Below are positions 3,821 to 64,000 of a stretch of DNA of 64,000 bases, one piece after another. Below the pieces are notes generated by a model. It had not been told where the DNA came from, made no database searches, and was given only the letters and a program-made list of their open reading frames with translations. The translations under genes and the position numbers were made by a program. Source of the stretch: an uncultured Candidatus Saccharibacteria bacterium (GTDB taxonomy: Bacteria > Patescibacteriota > Minisyncoccia > Phycocordibacterales > DATDWN01); contig CAYRRP010000002.1 of the NCBI GenBank assembly GCA_964426735.1, forward strand, positions 6,582 to 70,581. Direction: 5' to 3'. Each line of letters begins with the position of its first letter. Position 1 is the first letter of the stretch.

Positions 3821-3836
3821 TGCAGACCCTTTTTTG
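3808..3836. terminator. terminator hairpin gggtctgca-tga-tgcagaccc + T6; convergent genes on both sides
   Basis: Perfect 9-bp stem followed by tttttt. Confidence 0.65.
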
Positions 3837-3839
3837 TTA

Positions 3840-5030
3840 TTAGCGTGTATCTTTGAGGGCAAGTGACCAGTATGTTCCAAGTATTACTGTAATTCCAAGC
3901 AGGAGGAATATGTAATTGTATGGTAAAAATCTCAGTGCGAATGTTGCAACGATAGGTCCAATAATAAAACCAAGTGGGCGAGTGGTTCGGTATATACTGA
4001 TTTCATCAGTTTGACTTTGATTTACTTGTTTAAAGAAGAAACTATCTGAGGTGATTTCAACAAAGGAAGCCCCAGTACGTGTAAGGAATAGGAGTGAAGT
4101 CCAGAGAATAAAGTTGTTGGTGGTGATGAAGCTGATGCAGATTGTTGCAAGACCCATGATTATAAGTCCTATAGTGAGTATTTCTTTCTCACCGTATTTA
4201 GTGTCAGCAAGTTTGCCGATAGGAAGCTCAAATAATGCAAATGGAAGAAGCATGATAGTAAACATAATACCGATTTGTTCCCATGAGAATCCGATATGCA
4301 TGTTCAGATGTACAGGCATATAAATAATCATAATTGCATAGAACAATTGAAGGATGAGGTGACACATGAATACTTTCGATAGGTTTGCTATTTCTATGAA
4401 TGTAACCACCGTCTCACGTACTTTAATGTGTGCAATAGGTACATCTGTATAATTTTTAAAATATCGTCTGGTGAGGATGAAGAGTGGTATAAGACAAAGG
4501 AGTGATATGAAGTACACTCGATCAAATTGATCTTTTGCTAAAATAAAACCTACAAGCATTGGTGCGATTACGAGAGTAATGTTTGCAAGGGTAAGATATG
4601 TACCTCGAATTCCACCAGTTTTTGTTTCATCGGTTGATTCACTTTCGAGGAAGACATCGAGATTGAAAAGAATAAGAGGAACGACAATTTGATGGATAAG
4701 GAAATAGATACCAATCAGTGTGGGGTTTTGTGAAAATATCAGGCCAGTTACTGCAAGAGCTTCGAGTGTGATCGCACTCAGTATAATTTTATAGTTGCCA
4801 ACTTTGTTGAGTATTTTTGATATATTGAGAAGGAGCACAAGGTTTATGAGTGACCCTATGGTGTAGAGGTTACTTACTTGATCATCGGTAAAAAAATGAG
4901 ACAGAAAGGATGAGTTTATGTAAATAATAAAGTAATAATGGAAGGATAGAAATATGTTGGCAAGATATACAACAGTGAGTAATTTATGTTGACGCACCCG
5001 TTCAGTTAATTTCGTAAGAATAAAATCCAT
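3840..5030 (-). CDS. MFS-type transporter (start taken at internal Met MDFILTK)
   Basis: About 12 hydrophobic segments. The longer ORF (to 5141) overlaps the IS transposase gene, so the internal ATG at 5030 is preferred. Confidence 0.6.
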   Translation of the reverse strand: MDFILTKLTERVRQHKLLTVVYLANIFLSFHYYFIIYINSSFLSHFFTDDQVSNLYTIGSLINLVLLLNISKILNKVGNYKIILSAITLEALAVTGLIFSQNPTLIGIYFLIHQIVVPLILFNLDVFLESESTDETKTGGIRGTYLTLANITLVIAPMLVGFILAKDQFDRVYFISLLCLIPLFILTRRYFKNYTDVPIAHIKVRETVVTFIEIANLSKVFMCHLILQLFYAIMIIYMPVHLNMHIGFSWEQIGIMFTIMLLPFALFELPIGKLADTKYGEKEILTIGLIIMGLATICISFITTNNFILWTSLLFLTRTGASFVEITSDSFFFKQVNQSQTDEISIYRTTRPLGFIIGPIVATFALRFLPYNYIFLLLGITVILGTYWSLALKDTR

Positions 5031-5127
5031 ATTTGTATAGTATAACGGAAAATGATGCTTGGACAAAACTAAGTGAGTACTACGGATCTCCCCACCATAC
5101 ACCTTTCCGGAGTTTTCCAAAAGTGTT

Positions 5128-6060
5128 TTAGGTACACACATTTGTCACCTCTAATTCTAACATTTCATTAGGTGTTTTCCCATTTAAACCACAATGTTCT
5201 AAATTGTTGTAGTACTCATTCCATGTTTTCAATTTCTCTTGCAAGTCATTCATTGATTTGAATTTGTGTTTTTCGTAGAATTTCTCTTGATCTTCTCTGT
5301 GACTTCTTTCCACTGTCCCGTTTTGTGCAGGTTTGCCAGGATCAATGAGGTAGTGAATGATATTGTGTTCTGTACAAAATGTATCAAGTCCATGGAGTGT
5401 TTTGACTGAAACATCACTTCTTTTGTTTGTTCCGAGGTAGTAGTTGGTGAACATACTTCCATTGTCTGTTTTAATTGCATGTATCTTGTACTTAAATTGC
5501 TTGATGACGTCTTCTAGAAACAAAACTGAGTGGTATGATGTCTGTTCATCATATATTGCAAGATACCTCCATCGAGAAGCTGTATCAATGGCTGTATACT
5601 GAAAATATCGTTTTCCTGCAATCTTTCCTGGTACATACTTCACATCAATCTCAATGAGTTCACCTGGTTTTCTTTCAGCTTTGATATATTTGTATTTGAT
5701 TTTCTTTACTCTGTATTTTCGTACTAAATTCTCTGATTTCAATATCTTTCCAATTGTTCTTTCGTGAATGACAACTCCTTCCTTTGCTAGTTTCCACTTT
5801 AGCTTGAGTGCACAGAGTTTAGTTTTCTTTCGGAGATCAACCACTCTCTCTTTTAGTTGAATCTGTGATTCCTTTGGATTTGTCTTTGGTCTTGTTGATT
5901 TTGGTATGAGTCCTTTCTCTCCTTTGTCACGGTATTCTTTGAGCCACCTCTTGAGGGTTCTTCCATTGTGAGGAAAGATCTTGATTACATCTTTTAGCCT
6001 AGCTCCATCCTCGACCATTTGTACCCATCTTAAACGTTCTTCTTGTATGTTTTTTGGCAT
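5128..6060 (-). CDS. DDE transposase, IS481/IS3-superfamily integrase core
   Basis: N-terminal HTH-like region followed by the catalytic DDE region (IDVKYVPG..., TDNG, VERSHRED). Confidence 0.75.
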   Translation of the reverse strand: MPKNIQEERLRWVQMVEDGARLKDVIKIFPHNGRTLKRWLKEYRDKGEKGLIPKSTRPKTNPKESQIQLKERVVDLRKKTKLCALKLKWKLAKEGVVIHERTIGKILKSENLVRKYRVKKIKYKYIKAERKPGELIEIDVKYVPGKIAGKRYFQYTAIDTASRWRYLAIYDEQTSYHSVLFLEDVIKQFKYKIHAIKTDNGSMFTNYYLGTNKRSDVSVKTLHGLDTFCTEHNIIHYLIDPGKPAQNGTVERSHREDQEKFYEKHKFKSMNDLQEKLKTWNEYYNNLEHCGLNGKTPNEMLELEVTNVCT

Positions 6061-6112
6061 ATGTGTACACATGAGTTAACTCTACTAAAAAGTGACATAT
6101 GTGTGTGCACAT
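5128..6112 (-). mobile_element. IS481-family-like insertion sequence (single DDE transposase gene, imperfect terminal IRs)
   Basis: Transposase ORF 5128-6060 has an rve-type integrase core: KTDNGSMF ... VERSHRE. Terminal IRs are gtacacacatttgtcac (5132-5148) and gtgacatatgtgtgtgcac (6092-6110, reverse complement). Length about 1 kb. Confidence 0.7.
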
Positions 6113-6414: not shown

Positions 6415-6516
6415 TGGATTCGACCATGGTACGTGCCGTCTGCGCACTGTTGGCTGTAGTTTTCTTGGTAATTATTGTTGTCCGTCGACGTAATGACGAA
6501 GAAGAATAATTGCCCA

Positions 6517-6554
6517 AAACGCCTGCGAGGGAAACCTCGCAGGCGTTTTTCTGT
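6517..6554. terminator. strong bidirectional terminator aaacgcctgcgagg-gaaa-cctcgcaggcgttttt
   Basis: 14-bp GC-rich stem with a T-run on the + strand and an A/T context on the - strand. Sits between flp (+) and rnj (-). Confidence 0.7.
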
Positions 6555-6582
6555 TTACTGTTGACTAATGACTGTTGTCTTT

Positions 6583-26681: not shown

Positions 26682-26707
26682 ATATTACACCACACTTTTA
26701 AAAAAAA

Positions 26708-26743
26708 GAAGGGCACCTTCCTCGCGAGGAAGGTGCCCTTCTG
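26708..26743. terminator. bidirectional terminator gaagggcaccttcctcg-cg-aggaaggtgcccttc flanked by A7 / T-rich
   Basis: 17-bp stem. Confidence 0.7.
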
Positions 26744-26767
26744 GTTTGGTGGGAATTTGGGTAAGTT

Positions 26768-39171: not shown

Positions 39172-39399
39172 AAGAGACTACAACATTCATTTTTTCACTT
39201 AGTCCTCGCCTTTTGAGAGATACGGCATAATTTTTTGACCTTCCGCAAACTCGCTTCGCTTCGGTCCTGAGTACAAGACTTGGTGCTCACGGTCTAAAAA
39301 AATTATTGATATCTCTTGCAAAAGTCTGCGAAATCGTTCAAAAATGAATATTGCATTCTCTGTGGTAAATTATTTATTTATTAATTAATCATAAAACAT

Positions 39400-41928: not shown

Positions 41929-42282
41929 ATGAAAGGAGGCTATAAAGATCTATTGGTGTGGCAAAAAGCAATGAAGCTTGTTTTGCTGGTTTACGAATAT
42001 ACAAAAGACTTCCCGGCTTCAGAAAATTTTGGTTTAACTTCTCAGATAAGAAGATCAGTTGTTTCTATACCTTCAAATATTGCAGAAGGAAGTAAGAGGA
42101 AAACCAAAAAAGATTTTCAACAATTTATCTCAATTGCACTTGGTTCAGGTGCTGAGCTAGAAACTCAAATTGAGATATCAAAACAGCTAAAATATGGAAA
42201 TAATGTTAAAATAAAGGAGATAGAAAATTTATCAAATGAGGTTATGAGAATGCTGTTTGCTTTATTTAAAGTGAACTATTGA
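41929..42282 (+). CDS. four-helix-bundle protein (TIGR02436-like, so-called 23S rRNA intervening sequence protein family)
   Basis: 117 aa with ...SIPSNIAEGS..R..KDF..F..IALGS..ELETQ.... Confidence 0.6.
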   Translation: MKGGYKDLLVWQKAMKLVLLVYEYTKDFPASENFGLTSQIRRSVVSIPSNIAEGSKRKTKKDFQQFISIALGSGAELETQIEISKQLKYGNNVKIKEIENLSNEVMRMLFALFKVNY

Positions 42283-52050: not shown

Positions 52051-52061
52051 CCGCTCTGATC

Positions 52062-52166
52062 TTTTTCACCAATCTCATCGTCTAAAATGTAGTAAAATAT
52101 TTTCCGCCGTACGCATAGTACGTCTATAAATATTTTCTACATTTTATACGCGACCTTGGTGAAAAA
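52062..52166. repeat. about 105-bp imperfect palindrome (AT-rich 40-bp arms) with 25-nt loop containing CGTACGCATAGTACGTCT
   Basis: Arms tttttcaccaatctcatcgtctaaaatgtagtaaaatattt / aaatattttctacattttatacgcgaccttggtgaaaaa. The tract polarity is wrong for an intrinsic terminator. Confidence 0.6.
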
Positions 52167-52324
52167 TCTACAGAGCTTTCATTCTAAAAAAATTAAGTGA
52201 TAACTTAACCAAAAAGAGTCTTAAGATAAGGCTTTTTTGGTACTTGACAAATAGGTATTTGATTGTGTATAATATATTGGTAGGCAAAAAAGCCAAAGTC
52301 CTTTGAATTCATCAACGAGGAGTT

Positions 52325-52837
52325 GTGATGCAGCAAGTATTTACGCCCCAAGAATTTTTGAGCTACCTGAACCGGTATCTCAAGGTAAAACGCCCGAACC
52401 TGATCGAAGAAAAAAGTCGGGAAGAACGAGCTAGTAAAGACGTTCCTTTGTTTCCTCTCGACACTCTCGATTTCAACAAGGATGTTGATCTCGTTATTTG
52501 CGGTCCTTGCTCCACCGGCGTGCTTGACTGGATGGCATACAACGAAGACTTTCCGATGGGAAAATGCATGGTCAAGGCGGGGGAACCTGATAGGTCTTGG
52601 CTTCATTCAGCTCTTTCCCGACAAGAAAAGTCGGTGAAAAATATCGTTGTTTATGCTACCTGCTGCGGTTGCTATACGGACAGATACAAGACCCTGCTTG
52701 CACAAGTGTTTTCAGAGATCAATTGGCACTTTCCGTACGTTCGGGATTTGTGCGACAATAATAACCCTGATCGGATTGCGGAAGGATTGCTTAAAGCCGG
52801 CATTCTCAAGATTGTTCCGGCTCCTGTAGTCGCCTAA
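52325..52837 (+). CDS. hypothetical Cys-rich protein (CGPC ... CCGC), locally elevated GC
   Basis: 170-aa ORF with no recognised family. Confidence 0.4.
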   Translation: MMQQVFTPQEFLSYLNRYLKVKRPNLIEEKSREERASKDVPLFPLDTLDFNKDVDLVICGPCSTGVLDWMAYNEDFPMGKCMVKAGEPDRSWLHSALSRQEKSVKNIVVYATCCGCYTDRYKTLLAQVFSEINWHFPYVRDLCDNNNPDRIAEGLLKAGILKIVPAPVVA

Positions 52838-52853
52838 CCGATTTCGTCAACCC

Positions 52854-52899
52854 CGTACCAAACAAGCCTTGTGCCTGTTTGGACGGGGTTTTGTTTTAT
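52854..52899 (+). terminator. terminator ccccgtaccaaacaag-N9-ctgtttggacgggg + T-run
   Basis: 15-bp stem with one bulge. Confidence 0.7.
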
Positions 52900-52928
52900 A
52901 TAAAATCACAGAGTCTATTTTAGTCATT

Positions 52929-53096
52929 GAGCAAGTCCACCAATGCACCTAATCGGAGCCCCCGCAGGGTCTGAGCCGGTGTTGTCAATGACCCGAAGCT
53001 TTGCTGAGGGCTCTTGACAACTCAGGCCCGAGGACAGCCAAAAGTGCTCGCTGGAGACTTTTGGGCAGCTCCGATTAGGTGCATTGGTGGACTCGC
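52929..53096. repeat. 168-nt GC-rich structured element with perfect 26-bp terminal inverted repeats (MITE-like or structured ncRNA), immediately upstream of rpmE
   Basis: agtccaccaatgcacctaatcggagc (52934-52959) is the exact reverse complement of 53068-53093. The interior has a second nested hairpin (ctgag..ttgtcaa / ttgacaa..ctcag). Confidence 0.6.
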
Positions 53097-53156
53097 GGAG
53101 GTCAGACTAAAGGGGAAGTTGCAAAAATAAGGAATTTTTGGTACAGTATTCGGGCA

Positions 53157-53414
53157 ATGAAAAAAGACATACATCCTAAGAACTACCGAGACGTTTTGTT
53201 TATCGACAACTCAAACAGTGCTGAGTTTATTATCTCGTCTGCGGTAAAGACTAATGAGACTGGAAAAGCTAAAGATGGTAAAGAATACCCTATTTTCCGA
53301 GTAGAAATCTCTAGCGCATCACATCCTTTTTATACAGGAAATGAGAAAACTCTCGACACCGCTGGTCGTGTAGAACGCTTTAAAGCAAAACAGGCAAAAG
53401 CTAAAACTAAGTAG
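53157..53414 (+). CDS. rpmE: 50S ribosomal protein L31 (type B, no CxxC zinc motif)
   Basis: MKKDIHPKNYRDV start; 85 aa. Confidence 0.85.
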   Translation: MKKDIHPKNYRDVLFIDNSNSAEFIISSAVKTNETGKAKDGKEYPIFRVEISSASHPFYTGNEKTLDTAGRVERFKAKQAKAKTK

Positions 53415-56384: not shown

Positions 56385-56427
56385 AGTTTTTTGTTTGATA
56401 AACTAGTTTAGTTAAACGTGAAATATG

Positions 56428-56503
56428 CCACTTTAGCTCAGTTGGTAGAGCAGCCGTTTTGTAAACGGCAGGTCGTCAGTTCAAGCCTGACAAGTGGCTC
56501 CAG
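56428..56503 (+). tRNA. tRNA-Thr (anticodon UGU), CCA encoded
   Basis: GCCACTT acceptor, D-loop AGTTGGTA, anticodon loop TTTGTAA, T-loop TTCAAGC, then T-CCA. Confidence 0.85.
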
Positions 56504-58033
56504 AACCTGACTTTCTTCAGGAATCACGGAGGATGCGTGGGCTCGCTGTAAATAGACCCAAGGATTATCGCTAGGATTTAGAACATGGTTTGGGGAAATC
56601 GGCGCGATGACGCGCAAGGTTTTGTTTTGGAGAAGGAGGTTCGAGCCAAAGACTTTTTTGGCAGCGACCTTTTTATGCAAAAGGTCGCAATCCAATGCGA
56701 TTTTTTCCATATCCACGGCCTCTTTTATCCATTTTTGCATCGGTTCGAGCCAATGATTCTGCTTTTGTTCTATGGAAGATATTTCCTCCTCCAGTGACTT
56801 TTTCTCGGATAGCAATTTAGCTTTTTCACAACGATAGACTTCCTTATCAATATCCTGTTCCAAGTATCCGTCCAAAAGTCGCTGGAGCTTAACCGAAATA
56901 TCTTTTATCCTTTTTTGATTTTTTTCTACAAAAGCAGAAACAGATTGGGCGGAGTTTGTTCTATCATGTTCTAATTTGGTATTCAAATAGTCCGCCCAAT
57001 CTTTCGGCATAGAAACTTTTTGAAGTAAAGAGGAAATTTGCGCGTCTAATGATTCCTGGCGAACACAGGGTTCAGGACACTTCATATCTTTCCGTTTCTT
57101 AGTGCAGTGATAATACGTATAGAAGTGTTCCTGACCGTTCAACTGCTTTTTAACCCTGTATTCGCCAGTAATCATCATTCCACAAGACGCGCAGGTTATA
57201 AGTCCGCAGAATACCTGAGGCTGATTTTTCTGCTTGAAACGCGGACGGCTTTTTTGCTTCAAAATTTCCTGAACTCTATCAAAAAGTTTCTTTGACACGA
57301 TTGGCTCATGATTGCCTTCGTGAATTTCTCCAGCGTATCTGAAGTGTCCGTAGTAAAAGGGGTTAGAGAGTATAAATGTCGCTCGGGAGATGTGAATTCT
57401 CTGTCCGATCTTTGTGATGAGGCGGTTTTGCTCCAAAAAGACCCCAATTCGTTCGAGCGTTTGATCGCCCTTAGAATACATCTCAAACGCTTGGCGAATC
57501 ACAGGCGCTTGCTTCCTATCTACTACAACAGTCTTAGACCGTGAATCGTTCAAATACCCGATAGGAGCAAGCGACGGATATTCGCCACGACGAACTTTTT
57601 GGCGCAAACCGCGCTTAGTGTTCTCGGACAGGGAATCCACATAGTATTTGCTCTGCCCGAAAGCGATACTTAACATAAATTTACCCTGTGGCGTGGACTC
57701 AAACCAAAAGCTGGGGAATTTCAAACCGACGATTACACTTGTATCAAGCAAATATATTATTCTTCCACCATCAACAGAATTACGAGCGAGACGGTCTGGA
57801 TGCCAAGAGAGAATAGAGTCTGCTTCGCCCGCTTCAATTTGTAAAAGCATATCGTTAAACATTGGTCTGCCAGGAATTTTGGCACTTTGCTTTTCAATAA
57901 ACTCGCGAGCGATATCCAAACCTTCTCTCTTGGCAAAGTCGCGTAACTCTTGCAACTGTGCCTCGATGGATAATATTTGCTTGTCCTCTACGTCGGTTGA
58001 TTTGCGTGCATACAAAAAGAATTTTTGAGCCAT
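56438..58033 (-). CDS. large serine recombinase (resolvase catalytic domain + recombinase domain + zinc ribbon + coiled coil); 3' end uncertain because the ORF reads through IR-L and antisense tRNA-Thr
   Basis: N-terminus FLYARKSTDVEDKQILSIEAQ (catalytic Ser), ...DRLARN..., zinc ribbon CGLITCASCG...YYHCTKKRKDMKCPEP. Confidence 0.8.
   Translation of the reverse strand: MAQKFFLYARKSTDVEDKQILSIEAQLQELRDFAKREGLDIAREFIEKQSAKIPGRPMFNDMLLQIEAGEADSILSWHPDRLARNSVDGGRIIYLLDTSVIVGLKFPSFWFESTPQGKFMLSIAFGQSKYYVDSLSENTKRGLRQKVRRGEYPSLAPIGYLNDSRSKTVVVDRKQAPVIRQAFEMYSKGDQTLERIGVFLEQNRLITKIGQRIHISRATFILSNPFYYGHFRYAGEIHEGNHEPIVSKKLFDRVQEILKQKSRPRFKQKNQPQVFCGLITCASCGMMITGEYRVKKQLNGQEHFYTYYHCTKKRKDMKCPEPCVRQESLDAQISSLLQKVSMPKDWADYLNTKLEHDRTNSAQSVSAFVEKNQKRIKDISVKLQRLLDGYLEQDIDKEVYRCEKAKLLSEKKSLEEEISSIEQKQNHWLEPMQKWIKEAVDMEKIALDCDLLHKKVAAKKVFGSNLLLQNKTLRVIAPISPNHVLNPSDNPWVYLQRAHASSVIPEESQVLEPLVRLELTTCRLQNGCSTN
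56499..56706. repeat. left inverted repeat (IR-L) of the serine-recombinase element; begins inside tRNA-Thr 3' end (ctcca); carries a 45-bp insertion (56646-56690) that forms a perfect 10-bp hairpin
   Basis: The reverse complement of 58063-58226 matches 56499-56645 and 56691-56706 with zero mismatches. Confidence 0.85.
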
Positions 58034-62924: not shown

Positions 62925-64000
62925 ATGTTTAAAAAAATAGTTAGTTGGTCAACCATTAATAGGAATAAAACAATTTTCCTGGGATTACTAGTTACTCTCT
63001 TAGGAGTATATGCAGGCATGAATATGGAGGTTGATGTTTTGCCTAATATCAACAAACCCACCGTAATAGTTTTCGCAGAAGCAGACGGTCTTGCGCCCGA
63101 AGAAGTCGAAAAGGCAGTACTCGTACCGCTTGAAAATGCAGTTCTTGGCACTGCAGGTGTTGAAAGAGTTCGTGGAACAGCGTCTTTCGCATTAGGGATC
63201 GTCAATATCGAATTTCCATTTGGAAGTGATATTTACAAAAATCGACAATTAGTCCAAGAACGGATCTCCGCTGTTGCAGTACCTCCCAATGTAAAAGTTT
63301 CACTCGGGCCTGTTTCTTCTGTGATGGGTGAAATTATGTGGGCGGGTGTGAAAAGTAACTCTAATATCTCGCCGACTGATTTACGAACATATGTGGATTT
63401 CACTCTAAAACCAAACTTACTCAAGGTAAAAGGTATTTCTGATGTAATTGTTATGGGTGGAGATGTTCTTGAATGGCAGGTCAGACTCAATGCGGATGCT
63501 CTAAGTAAATACAAGATTACTCAAGAAGAAATAAATCTCGTACTGGAAAGAAATCTGCAAAATGCATCTGCAGGCATAATACAACAACAGAACAAAGAGT
63601 ACCCCGTTAGAATATTTGTGGCACCGAAAGAAATTAGTGAATTAGCAGATATTGCGATTCATACAGAAAATGGCCCTGTAAGATTAGGTGAGATTGCCTC
63701 CTTCGTAGAAGGGGCAAGTATAGTTCGAGGTGGTGCTTCTGTTGATGGTAGTCAGGGAATAATTCTTAGAATATTCAAACAACCTAATGCGGAAACGTTA
63801 AAAGTGACTAAGGAAGTGGATAGTCTTTTTGTAAATTTACAAAAAACAGCTCCAGCGGGAATTACACTACGAACAGATTTGTTTAGACAAGAATGGTTTA
63901 TTTCCGCCGGTCTATCGAACGTAGAAAAGGCATTAGTTGAGGCACTTATAATTGTTGCCGTTATTGTCTTTCTATTTTTAGTGAAATGGAAACCTACCCT
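62925..64000 (+). CDS. CusA/CzcA-family heavy-metal efflux RND transporter, N-terminal part (runs off window end)
   Basis: Translation MFKKIVSWSTINRNKTIFLGLLVTLLGVYAGMNMEVDVLPNINKPTVIVFAEADGLAPEEVEKAVLVPLENAVLG... continues with no stop to the end of the window. Confidence 0.75.
   Translation, partial: MFKKIVSWSTINRNKTIFLGLLVTLLGVYAGMNMEVDVLPNINKPTVIVFAEADGLAPEEVEKAVLVPLENAVLGTAGVERVRGTASFALGIVNIEFPFGSDIYKNRQLVQERISAVAVPPNVKVSLGPVSSVMGEIMWAGVKSNSNISPTDLRTYVDFTLKPNLLKVKGISDVIVMGGDVLEWQVRLNADALSKYKITQEEINLVLERNLQNASAGIIQQQNKEYPVRIFVAPKEISELADIAIHTENGPVRLGEIASFVEGASIVRGGASVDGSQGIILRIFKQPNAETLKVTKEVDSLFVNLQKTAPAGITLRTDLFRQEWFISAGLSNVEKALVEALIIVAVIVFLFLVKWKPT

Follow-up and report, generated by a model that had tools for sequence, protein, structure and literature searches.

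Directly upstream of rpmE, the gene for ribosomal protein L31, the window (the whole 64-kb stretch of DNA analyzed here) carries a GC-rich sequence closed by long inverted arms, and the question raised by this locus is whether the sequence is mobile DNA or a structured RNA. A first-pass annotation had weighed a miniature inverted-repeat transposable element (MITE), a 6S-like RNA and a leader RNA. Judged by the relatives of its RpmE and PrfA proteins, the window belongs to the Paceibacteria (Parcubacteria, CPR) and is close to Zambryskibacteria and Taylorbacteria. To our knowledge, almost no ncRNAs beyond the universal ones have been described in CPR/Patescibacteria, whose genomes are small and poorly understood.

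A perfect inverted repeat closes a branched interior

The arms form a perfect 26-nt inverted repeat, as first described, AGTCCACCAATGCACCTAATCGGAGC and GCTCCGATTAGGTGCATTGGTGGACT, at positions 52934-52959 and 53068-53093, and no such match occurred in 100 dinucleotide shuffles of the 64-kb window. If one A/C mismatch is accepted, the arms lengthen to 29 pairs (52931-52959 and 53068-53096). The span originally assigned, 52929-53096, is therefore set about 2-5 nt too far left at its left end; the first description is otherwise correct. The interior measures 108 nt (52960-53067) and contains the second strong hairpin reported earlier, here called hairpin A, together with a further small one, hairpin B. 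The two hairpins and the closing helix make up a three-way junction, in which the long closing duplex is coaxial with the long hairpin A and the short hairpin B leaves from the 3' strand (Table 1). Hairpin B was considered as an internal terminator and ruled out, the U-run being missing in two homologous copies (L104 and L105).

The plus strand of the element folds at -103.2 kcal/mol, compared with -60.1 +/- 4.4 for shuffled sequences (z = -9.8), and the opposite strand forms an equally strong fold (z = -11.2). Because both strands fold equally well and the arms are perfect and free of G.U pairs, the window copy has the look of a DNA-level palindrome. The GC fraction of the element is 0.57-0.59 and that of its flanks 0.38-0.43, and 60-63 nt separate its end from the rpmE ATG at 53157; both the GC-rich island in AT-rich surroundings and the 60-nt distance had been recognized in the first-pass annotation.

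Table 1. Features of the element, its surroundings and the second family member, in window coordinates unless a relative is named
Feature	Position	Strand	Remarks
Accessory Cys-rich ORF, 169 aa	52328..52837	+	Variable slot between SLT gene and rpmE
Intrinsic terminator of accessory ORF	52849..52897	+	Hairpin plus T-run; kept in L107, L108 and L016
Closing helix, 5' arm	52931..52959	+	Perfect over 52934-52959; 29 rungs with A/C mismatch
5' junction strand, CCCCGCAGG	52960..52968	+	CCGCAGG (52962-52968) the same in 4/4 type-1 lineages
Hairpin A	52967..53029	+	Lower stem covaries; conserved U.G pair
Hairpin A, asymmetric bulge	52978-52980	+	Invariant GGU
Hairpin A, upper stem		+	UUGUCAA-N-GACCC / GGGCUC-UUGACAA, invariant
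Hairpin A, apical loop, GAAGCUUUGCUGA	52995-53007	+	13 nt
3' junction strand	53028..53037	+	Invariant motif CCGAGGAC at 53028-53035
Hairpin B	53038..53064	+	Covarying stem
Hairpin B, loop region, UCGCUGGA	53048-53055	+	UCGCYGGA, invariant; tetraloop GCYG
Closing helix, 3' arm	53068..53096	+	Inverted-repeat match to 5' arm
rpmE promoter	53119..53147	+	TTGCAA, 17-nt spacer, TGG-TACAGT (extended -10; TTGCAA-17-TGGTACAGT)
rpmE promoter instances	window 53119-53159; L020 2945-3003; L112 2700-2740
rpmE, ribosomal protein L31, 85 aa	53157..53414	+
Type-2 family member	~39173..39361	-	Fills nrdA-nrdB intergenic region

The rpmE locus and its promoter

Some 25 of the fetched relatives share the gene order L25 - SLT-domain protein - rpmE - prfA - rpsB, and most of these have only 30-80 nt between the end of the SLT gene and rpmE. 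In these short-spacer relatives, the SLT stop codon is overlapped by a promoter of the form TAGACA-17-TGGTAGAGT, with ~9 nt between the end of its -10 box and the ATG. The window has a promoter of the same kind downstream of the element, with a -10 box that ends 9 nt before the ATG, and in all Paceibacteria examined the rpmE promoter (TTGCAA or TAGACA, 17 nt, TGG-TAsAGT) ends at about this distance. The promoter was called by reading the sequence, and a promoter scan did not call it. With the -10 box ~9 nt before the start codon, the mRNA from which L31 is translated probably has no leader or next to none.

The window has an additional 1.1 kb of DNA between the SLT gene and this promoter, composed of the 169-aa ORF, its terminator and the element, the terminator parting the element from the upstream gene. 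The slot (window 52051-53118, and its equivalents in L107, L108, L110 and L113) is hypervariable, and the ORFs found there in close relatives are mutually unrelated: one of 169 aa and rich in cysteine, one of 192 aa, one of 196 aa, and one of 83 aa on the other strand. The same conserved terminator follows the slot ORF in the window, L107 and L108, and it is also present behind a homologue of the 169-aa ORF in an unrelated context (L016). Past the terminator, and in the rpmE slot alone, a TAnAAT box is a recurring feature. A tie between the element and the 169-aa ORF was ruled out, as the only six homologues of this ORF are located in other contexts without the element.

Homologues at other loci preserve the fold

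An nhmmer search matched the interior of the element to a Paceibacterota MAG (L027), at another location and with a different closing stem. A covariance model was built from the window and L027 sequences, and a pattern scan of JGI metagenomes yielded three distinct homologues, namely L102 (identical to L027), L103/L105 and L104. Besides the window lineage, at least three Paceibacteria lineages therefore have elements of this kind, which we refer to as type 1, and the gene context differs in each. The window copy lies between the terminator of the 169-aa ORF and the rpmE promoter, the L102/L027 copy between an rve transposase fragment and the convergent 3' end of prfA, the L105 copy between msrB and a permease gene, and the L104 copy between a hisS-like gene and rpsU. 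All four copies run in the direction of the upstream gene, and three of them begin 10-20 nt past its stop codon (hisS, msrB and the transposase).

The type-1 alignment consists of four distinct sequences, three of them retrieved by a search pattern that fixes the hairpin A apex. Across these four, standard pairs occupy 95.9% of cells and 18 of 43 pairs differ on both sides, so that the structural selection suggested in the first-pass annotation is supported by compensatory changes in other lineages. The covariation score is 0.465, against 0.20 for column shuffles (0 of 500 reach the observed value) and at most 0.13 for slid registers. Five positions have G.U pairs, including one conserved U.G in hairpin A, and these favor the plus strand as the one that is folded. 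The invariant blocks are CCGCAGG, GGU, UUGUCAA-N-GACCC..AGCUU..AGGGCUC-UUGACAA, CCGAGGAC and UCGC.GGA. Invariance of the hairpin A apex is partly a matter of ascertainment because the apex was in the search pattern; CCGCAGG, GGU, CCGAGGAC and UCGC.GGA were not. Outside the pattern, 16 of 36 unpaired columns and 29 of 73 paired columns are conserved, which is no clear excess in the unpaired ones.

A closing helix of ~24-30 rungs is present in every type-1 copy, and its sequence varies between lineages. Only the inner 12 bp are homologous among copies, the outer part being lineage specific. The helix is composed of 26-29 perfect pairs in the window, 13 perfect plus 9 further pairs in L104, and 15 pairs, an internal loop and then 7-8 pairs in L102 and L105. 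No convincing promoter is common to the family members.

The metagenomes SRR14271366, SRR14271372 and SRR14271373 contain this same locus in identical form. No identical copy of the element was found at another place: a scan of the GTDB species representatives and IMG/VR for the exact arm gave no match, scans of viral contigs with five patterns, drawn from the arm and from the cores of types 1, 2 and 3, gave three chance matches only, and BLAST against phage and plasmid collections gave no match. The further copies that were found, a search for copies having been suggested at the outset, are diverged homologues elsewhere and a paralogue of another type in the window. It had also been argued that a single-copy sequence without an Rfam match and absent upstream of rpmE in relatives would be a unique recent insertion and not a functional RNA. 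This description does apply to the exact sequence, but the homologues at other loci and the related paralogue in the window make the conclusion of a unique insertion wrong.

A second family member between nrdA and nrdB

The paralogue was identified by all-against-all nhmmer comparison (E = 4e-19 to L107) and belongs to what we designate type 2. It begins 1-2 nt past the nrdA stop codon, and its minus strand, which folds 12.5 kcal/mol better, is antisense to nrdA and nrdB. A long closing stem containing G.U pairs leads to the junction UUCGCAGAC...GGCGAGGAC and the core CCGUGAGCAC..GUCUUGUACUCAGGAC..GAGUUUGCGG. Relative to L107 and L108, 14 of 60 pairs show compensatory change and the G.U-rich core helix is kept. 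The arms of the type-1 and type-2 members of the window are unrelated. Motif and folding scans of all window intergenic regions of at least 120 nt revealed no third member; 6415-6582 and 62930-63240 were considered and rejected, being one plain terminator and one unstructured sequence.

A small ORF at 41929-42282, located between the GAPDH gene and rpiB and 2.6 kb from the type-2 element, matches the '23S rRNA intervening sequence protein' family (E = 8e-40) and is weakly bAvd-like.

Different types replace one another in close relatives

Among fetched genomes with 86-96% PrfA identity, none has a type-1 element upstream of rpmE, and the type-1 covariance model finds this position occupied only in the window lineage, plus a partial copy in L017. 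What these relatives carry in the same slot, flanked by the same terminator and the same promoter, are other long structured elements; in L112 (82% PrfA identity) the slot is empty. Close relatives thus have different types in one slot, or the same type at different loci.

In type 2 (L107, L108), a closing stem of 17-21 bp leads to the junction UUCGCAGR...GGCGAGGAC. The motif pair is that of type 1, with the counterpart of CCGCAGG reading UCGCAGR, and it occurs nowhere else in a regex-plus-stem screen of all retrieved sequence. A long arm that covaries is a further part of type 2, as is a core helix, CCGUGAGC/GUUUGCGG, in which three G.U pairs are invariant. Type 3 (L110/L111 and L113/L114) has GAGUUUGCG in common with type 2, and a hairpin with a GUACUC loop is kept in the type-3 copy of L110 and not in that of L113. 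Its CCC-GAAGC...UUUGCGAGA-GGG resembles the type-1 apical loop, GAAGC|UUUGCUGA, with an inserted module. Both types 2 and 3 show compensatory changes and invariant G.U helices. In L017 (96% RpmE identity), the 3' half of type 1 is fused to a type 4 module, which is also found in L023 and L112, and the 9.5-kb L105 contig carries one type 1 and one type 3 element ~6 kb apart. The numbers of distinct sequences are four for type 1, three for type 2 and three for type 3, and the links between types are motifs in common read by eye together with a co-occurrence screen. Rapid turnover of this kind, together with the L017 hybrid, would be unusual for an RNA with a housekeeping role.

At L110:1215-1250, and likewise in L111, a fragment (CAUUCGCAGACUUUU) identical to the type-2 5' junction is found upstream of the type 3 element and lacks a 3' counterpart. 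An earlier type-2 copy, broken by a later arrival, seems to have left this remnant.

Proposed reading: a modular RNA family

Covarying helices, strand-specific G.U pairs and an invariant junction and loops indicate selection on a folded single strand, most simply RNA, and the varied loci, the replacement of types in one slot, the hybrids and the empty sites point to an accessory, mobile or recombined element over a housekeeping RNA. We favor, tentatively and at somewhat short of even confidence, the reading that the element is type 1 of an uncatalogued, modular and fast-moving family of small structured RNAs specific to the Paceibacteria, in which the long duplex probably serves as a stalk for processing and stability and a partner would bind at the conserved junction and loops. 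The element would be read from the plus strand, and transcription could start at a weak promoter belonging to the element (TAAAAT, 52901-52906) or read through from the upstream gene. The long, near-perfect duplex, free in its sequence, would serve processing and stability; as a candidate substrate of the canonical RNase III kind, comparable to the stalks of rRNA and of 23S intervening sequences, it is predicted to be cleaved and to free a core of ~110-135 nt. The invariant junction and loops may then offer a binding surface to a common protein or RNA partner, and the family as a whole would reside in the flexible gene pool and be moved by recombination.

Intervening sequences of 23S rRNA and rRNA processing stalks likewise have a long near-perfect duplex of free sequence, at the base of which RNase III cuts them out. 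Like the element, these intervening sequences are stem-loops with a long variable duplex, sporadic in occurrence and hypervariable between strains. However, they are located inside rRNA genes and have no conserved branched core, whereas the element is intergenic and its cleavage is predicted. Large orphan ncRNA motifs that came out of comparative genomics, such as the Weinberg/Breaker sets (PMC5737381), are also GC-rich islands in AT-rich intergenic regions with covarying helices and invariant junction nucleotides; the present family differs in having no entry in Rfam 15 and in that its structural types swap modules and positions over short evolutionary distances.

A bolder version of the small RNA reading, in which we place little confidence, would make the family a new class of mobile modular RNA genes in CPR, self-contained cassettes that trade domains and slots by recombination under a fast-evolving interaction, whose other party might be phage, a host organism or an effector, RNA-guided or RNA-binding, encoded at another place, with the CGCAGG/CGAGGAC junction acting as effector handle. 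Against the small RNA reading in general, no protein gene was found to co-occur with the family: neither window copy has a reverse transcriptase or Cas gene nearby, and the copies are not accompanied by any other RNA-associated gene.

The family would be a new class of RNA or, failing that, a novel sort of selfish element on which selection for the folded single strand has acted. It marks hypervariable slots in otherwise highly syntenic ribosomal gene clusters, at SLT|rpmE and nrdA|nrdB in the window and at prfA|rpsB in relatives, and the covariance model can be used to annotate thousands of MAGs.

Mobile DNA and cis-acting hairpins as alternatives

The alternative that survives best is that of a non-autonomous foldback DNA element, MITE-like or REPIN-like, with the arms as its ends and the RNA structure incidental or of use to a mobilisation intermediate only. 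In favor of it, the family is dispersed over unrelated intergenic regions (with two members in the window and two on the L105 contig), close relatives have one type at different loci and different types at one locus, presence and absence vary (empty sites in ~25 relatives), and there are a hybrid or nested copy in L017 and the broken type-2 5' half upstream of type 3 in L110. The perfect 26-bp arms of the window copy and the rve transposase adjoining one copy (L027/L102) are in keeping with it, and since a genuine MITE with a target-site duplication is present at the rpmE start of L027, such elements do occur in the group. The details of the copies, however, are not those of a MITE. No target-site duplication is found in the flanks of the window, L102, L105 or L104 copies. 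Conserved terminal repeats are lacking, as the type-1 arms differ completely once past the inner 12 bp; conservation is stronger in the interior than at the termini, which is the reverse of a MITE; and the arms of the two window members have nothing in common. No near-identical copies were found in the window, which has one type-1 and one diverged type-2 copy in 64 kb, the GTDB representatives or IMG/VR, and compensatory changes with strand-specific G.U pairs favor selection on a folded single strand. The MITE of the first-pass annotation is not upheld by these observations, and we regard the wider foldback reading as rather unlikely, though a serious rival.

Established families of intergenic repeats offer a similar contrast. 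The ends of Correia elements are inverted repeats of 26 bp, and these elements are substrates of RNase III. Like the present element, ERIC/IRU, REP-BIME, Correia/NEMIS and REPIN sequences are non-coding, 100-200 nt in length, mostly palindromic, intergenic and dispersed, often situated just past stop codons, built as mosaics of modules, variable between strains and folded into RNA hairpins. However, their termini are conserved, each genome holds similar copies by the tens to hundreds, and Correia elements and other MITEs have target-site duplications, none of which is seen at the type-1 copies. In the present family the termini differ, the junction and loops are invariant, and the copies are few and anciently diverged.

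Membership in the neighboring rve (IS3/IS481-like) insertion sequence was ruled out, because L116 has a homologous transposase with 71% identity and no element; three of the four type-1 copies, moreover, have no transposase nearby. A retron msr-msd is likewise no match, for the inverted repeats are present but no reverse transcriptase gene is located beside any copy, nor is there one among the 54 of 64 window ORFs of at least 80 aa that were scanned against Pfam. Integron attC sites are imperfect palindromes with R''/R' core sites (RYYYAAC and GTTRRRY) toward the outer ends and with extrahelical bases, and the arms here are perfect and without extrahelical bases. A near match, ACCTAAT / ATTAGGT, is found mid-arm in the window copy only and is absent from the homologues, and no integron integrase is among the scanned window ORFs.

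A further reading, which we judge slightly less likely again but still a serious rival, takes the element for a cis-acting intercistronic or 3'-UTR hairpin of the neighboring mRNAs, where cutting by RNase III or a block to exonucleases would uncouple or stabilize transcripts, as in REP/BIME, ERIC and the RNase III sites of T7. The placement of three of the four type-1 copies 10-20 nt past the stop codon of a codirectional gene suits this reading, but in the window a strong conserved terminator separates the upstream gene from the element. Similarly, the type-2 copy of the window starts 1-2 nt past the nrdA stop codon and fills the nrdA-nrdB spacer, but its better-folding strand, supported by G.U pairs, is antisense to both genes. 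The closing duplex of 24-30 bp in every type-1 copy and the lack of a promoter common to the copies are also compatible with a cis-acting role; a plain stabilizing hairpin, however, would have no need of an invariant three-way junction, bulge or loops.

Known RNA classes

The Rfam scan that had been proposed at the outset returned no family: in Rfam 15 the best match to the element is a plant miRNA precursor, at 17 bits against a threshold of 160 bits, the whole window gave two tRNAs only, and related loci carrying the other types gave nothing relevant. A K-turn reading of the junction, compared by eye, did not fit, nor did the hammerhead core, SRP helix 8, RNase P CR-I or 5S rRNA, and none of these has Rfam support.

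A divergent 6S-like RNA that would mimic an open promoter and sequester RNA polymerase is very improbable. The element resembles 6S RNA (RF00013) in size (160-190 nt), in its rod of a long closing and a long terminal helix and in the hairpin on the 3' side of the central region, and literature searches on 6S or structured RNAs in CPR found nothing relevant and, in the library covered, no mention of a 6S RNA together with the Candidate Phyla Radiation. The center of the element is a three-way junction, however, with only 1-3 unpaired nucleotides on the 5' strand and hence no open bubble to act as template. The 6S covariance model does not match the element at E <= 10 with permissive filters, nor the other types, and other families give only spurious weak matches. 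Several types and copies, absence or replacement in close relatives and a perfect, bulge-free duplex of 26 bp also speak against the 6S-like RNA that had been suggested.

An L31 autoregulatory leader, as a specific form of the leader RNA put forward in the first-pass annotation, deserves next to no credence, for although the element lies 60 nt upstream of rpmE, another type-1 copy (L104) precedes rpsU and close relatives also have structured elements upstream of rpmE, the promoter read at 53119-53147 is downstream of the element and would leave the rpmE mRNA almost free of a leader, the ~25 Paceibacteria with this gene order mostly have a spacer of just 30-80 nt and so lack the element, the remaining type-1 copies are found beside a permease gene or at the 3' end of prfA, and no Rfam L31 leader matches.

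Other features of the window and its relatives

The MITE-like insertion of L027 (DATDWZ010000024.1; L027:2869-3001) is 133 nt long; its terminal inverted repeats (TCCCGTTAGAGAT / ATCTCTAACGGGA) measure 13 bp, and the target sequence duplicated is TGAA. It is situated exactly at the rpmE start codon and parts rpmE from the conserved promoter, the ATG having been rebuilt from the last A of the insertion and the duplicated TG.

In the window, a full-length rve-type transposase gene (5128-6072, minus strand; HTH_28, HTH_32, rve and rve_3 domains) overlaps the end of an MFS transporter gene. It is of the same broad kind as the fragment in L027/L102 and adjoins neither window element. A gene for a large serine recombinase (56438-58033, minus strand), whose product has Resolvase, Recombinase and Zn-ribbon domains, extends into the 3' part of a tRNA gene at 56427-56499, which suggests an integrated element that begins at this tRNA. 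Beyond the recombinase (56427-58033) there are several ORFs without Pfam matches and two genes resembling M23/LysM peptidases. On the L105 contig, the interval 3831-5167 has long overlapping ORFs on both strands and an apparent GC content much above that of the rest of the contig, and may be a chimeric assembly or foreign DNA. Finally, a 23-nt inverted repeat without a spacer and with 91% complementarity (AAAAAAGAAGGGCACCTTCCTCG / CGAGGAAGGTGCCCTTCTGGTTT) is located between convergent genes at window positions 26702-26747, and is probably a bidirectional terminator.
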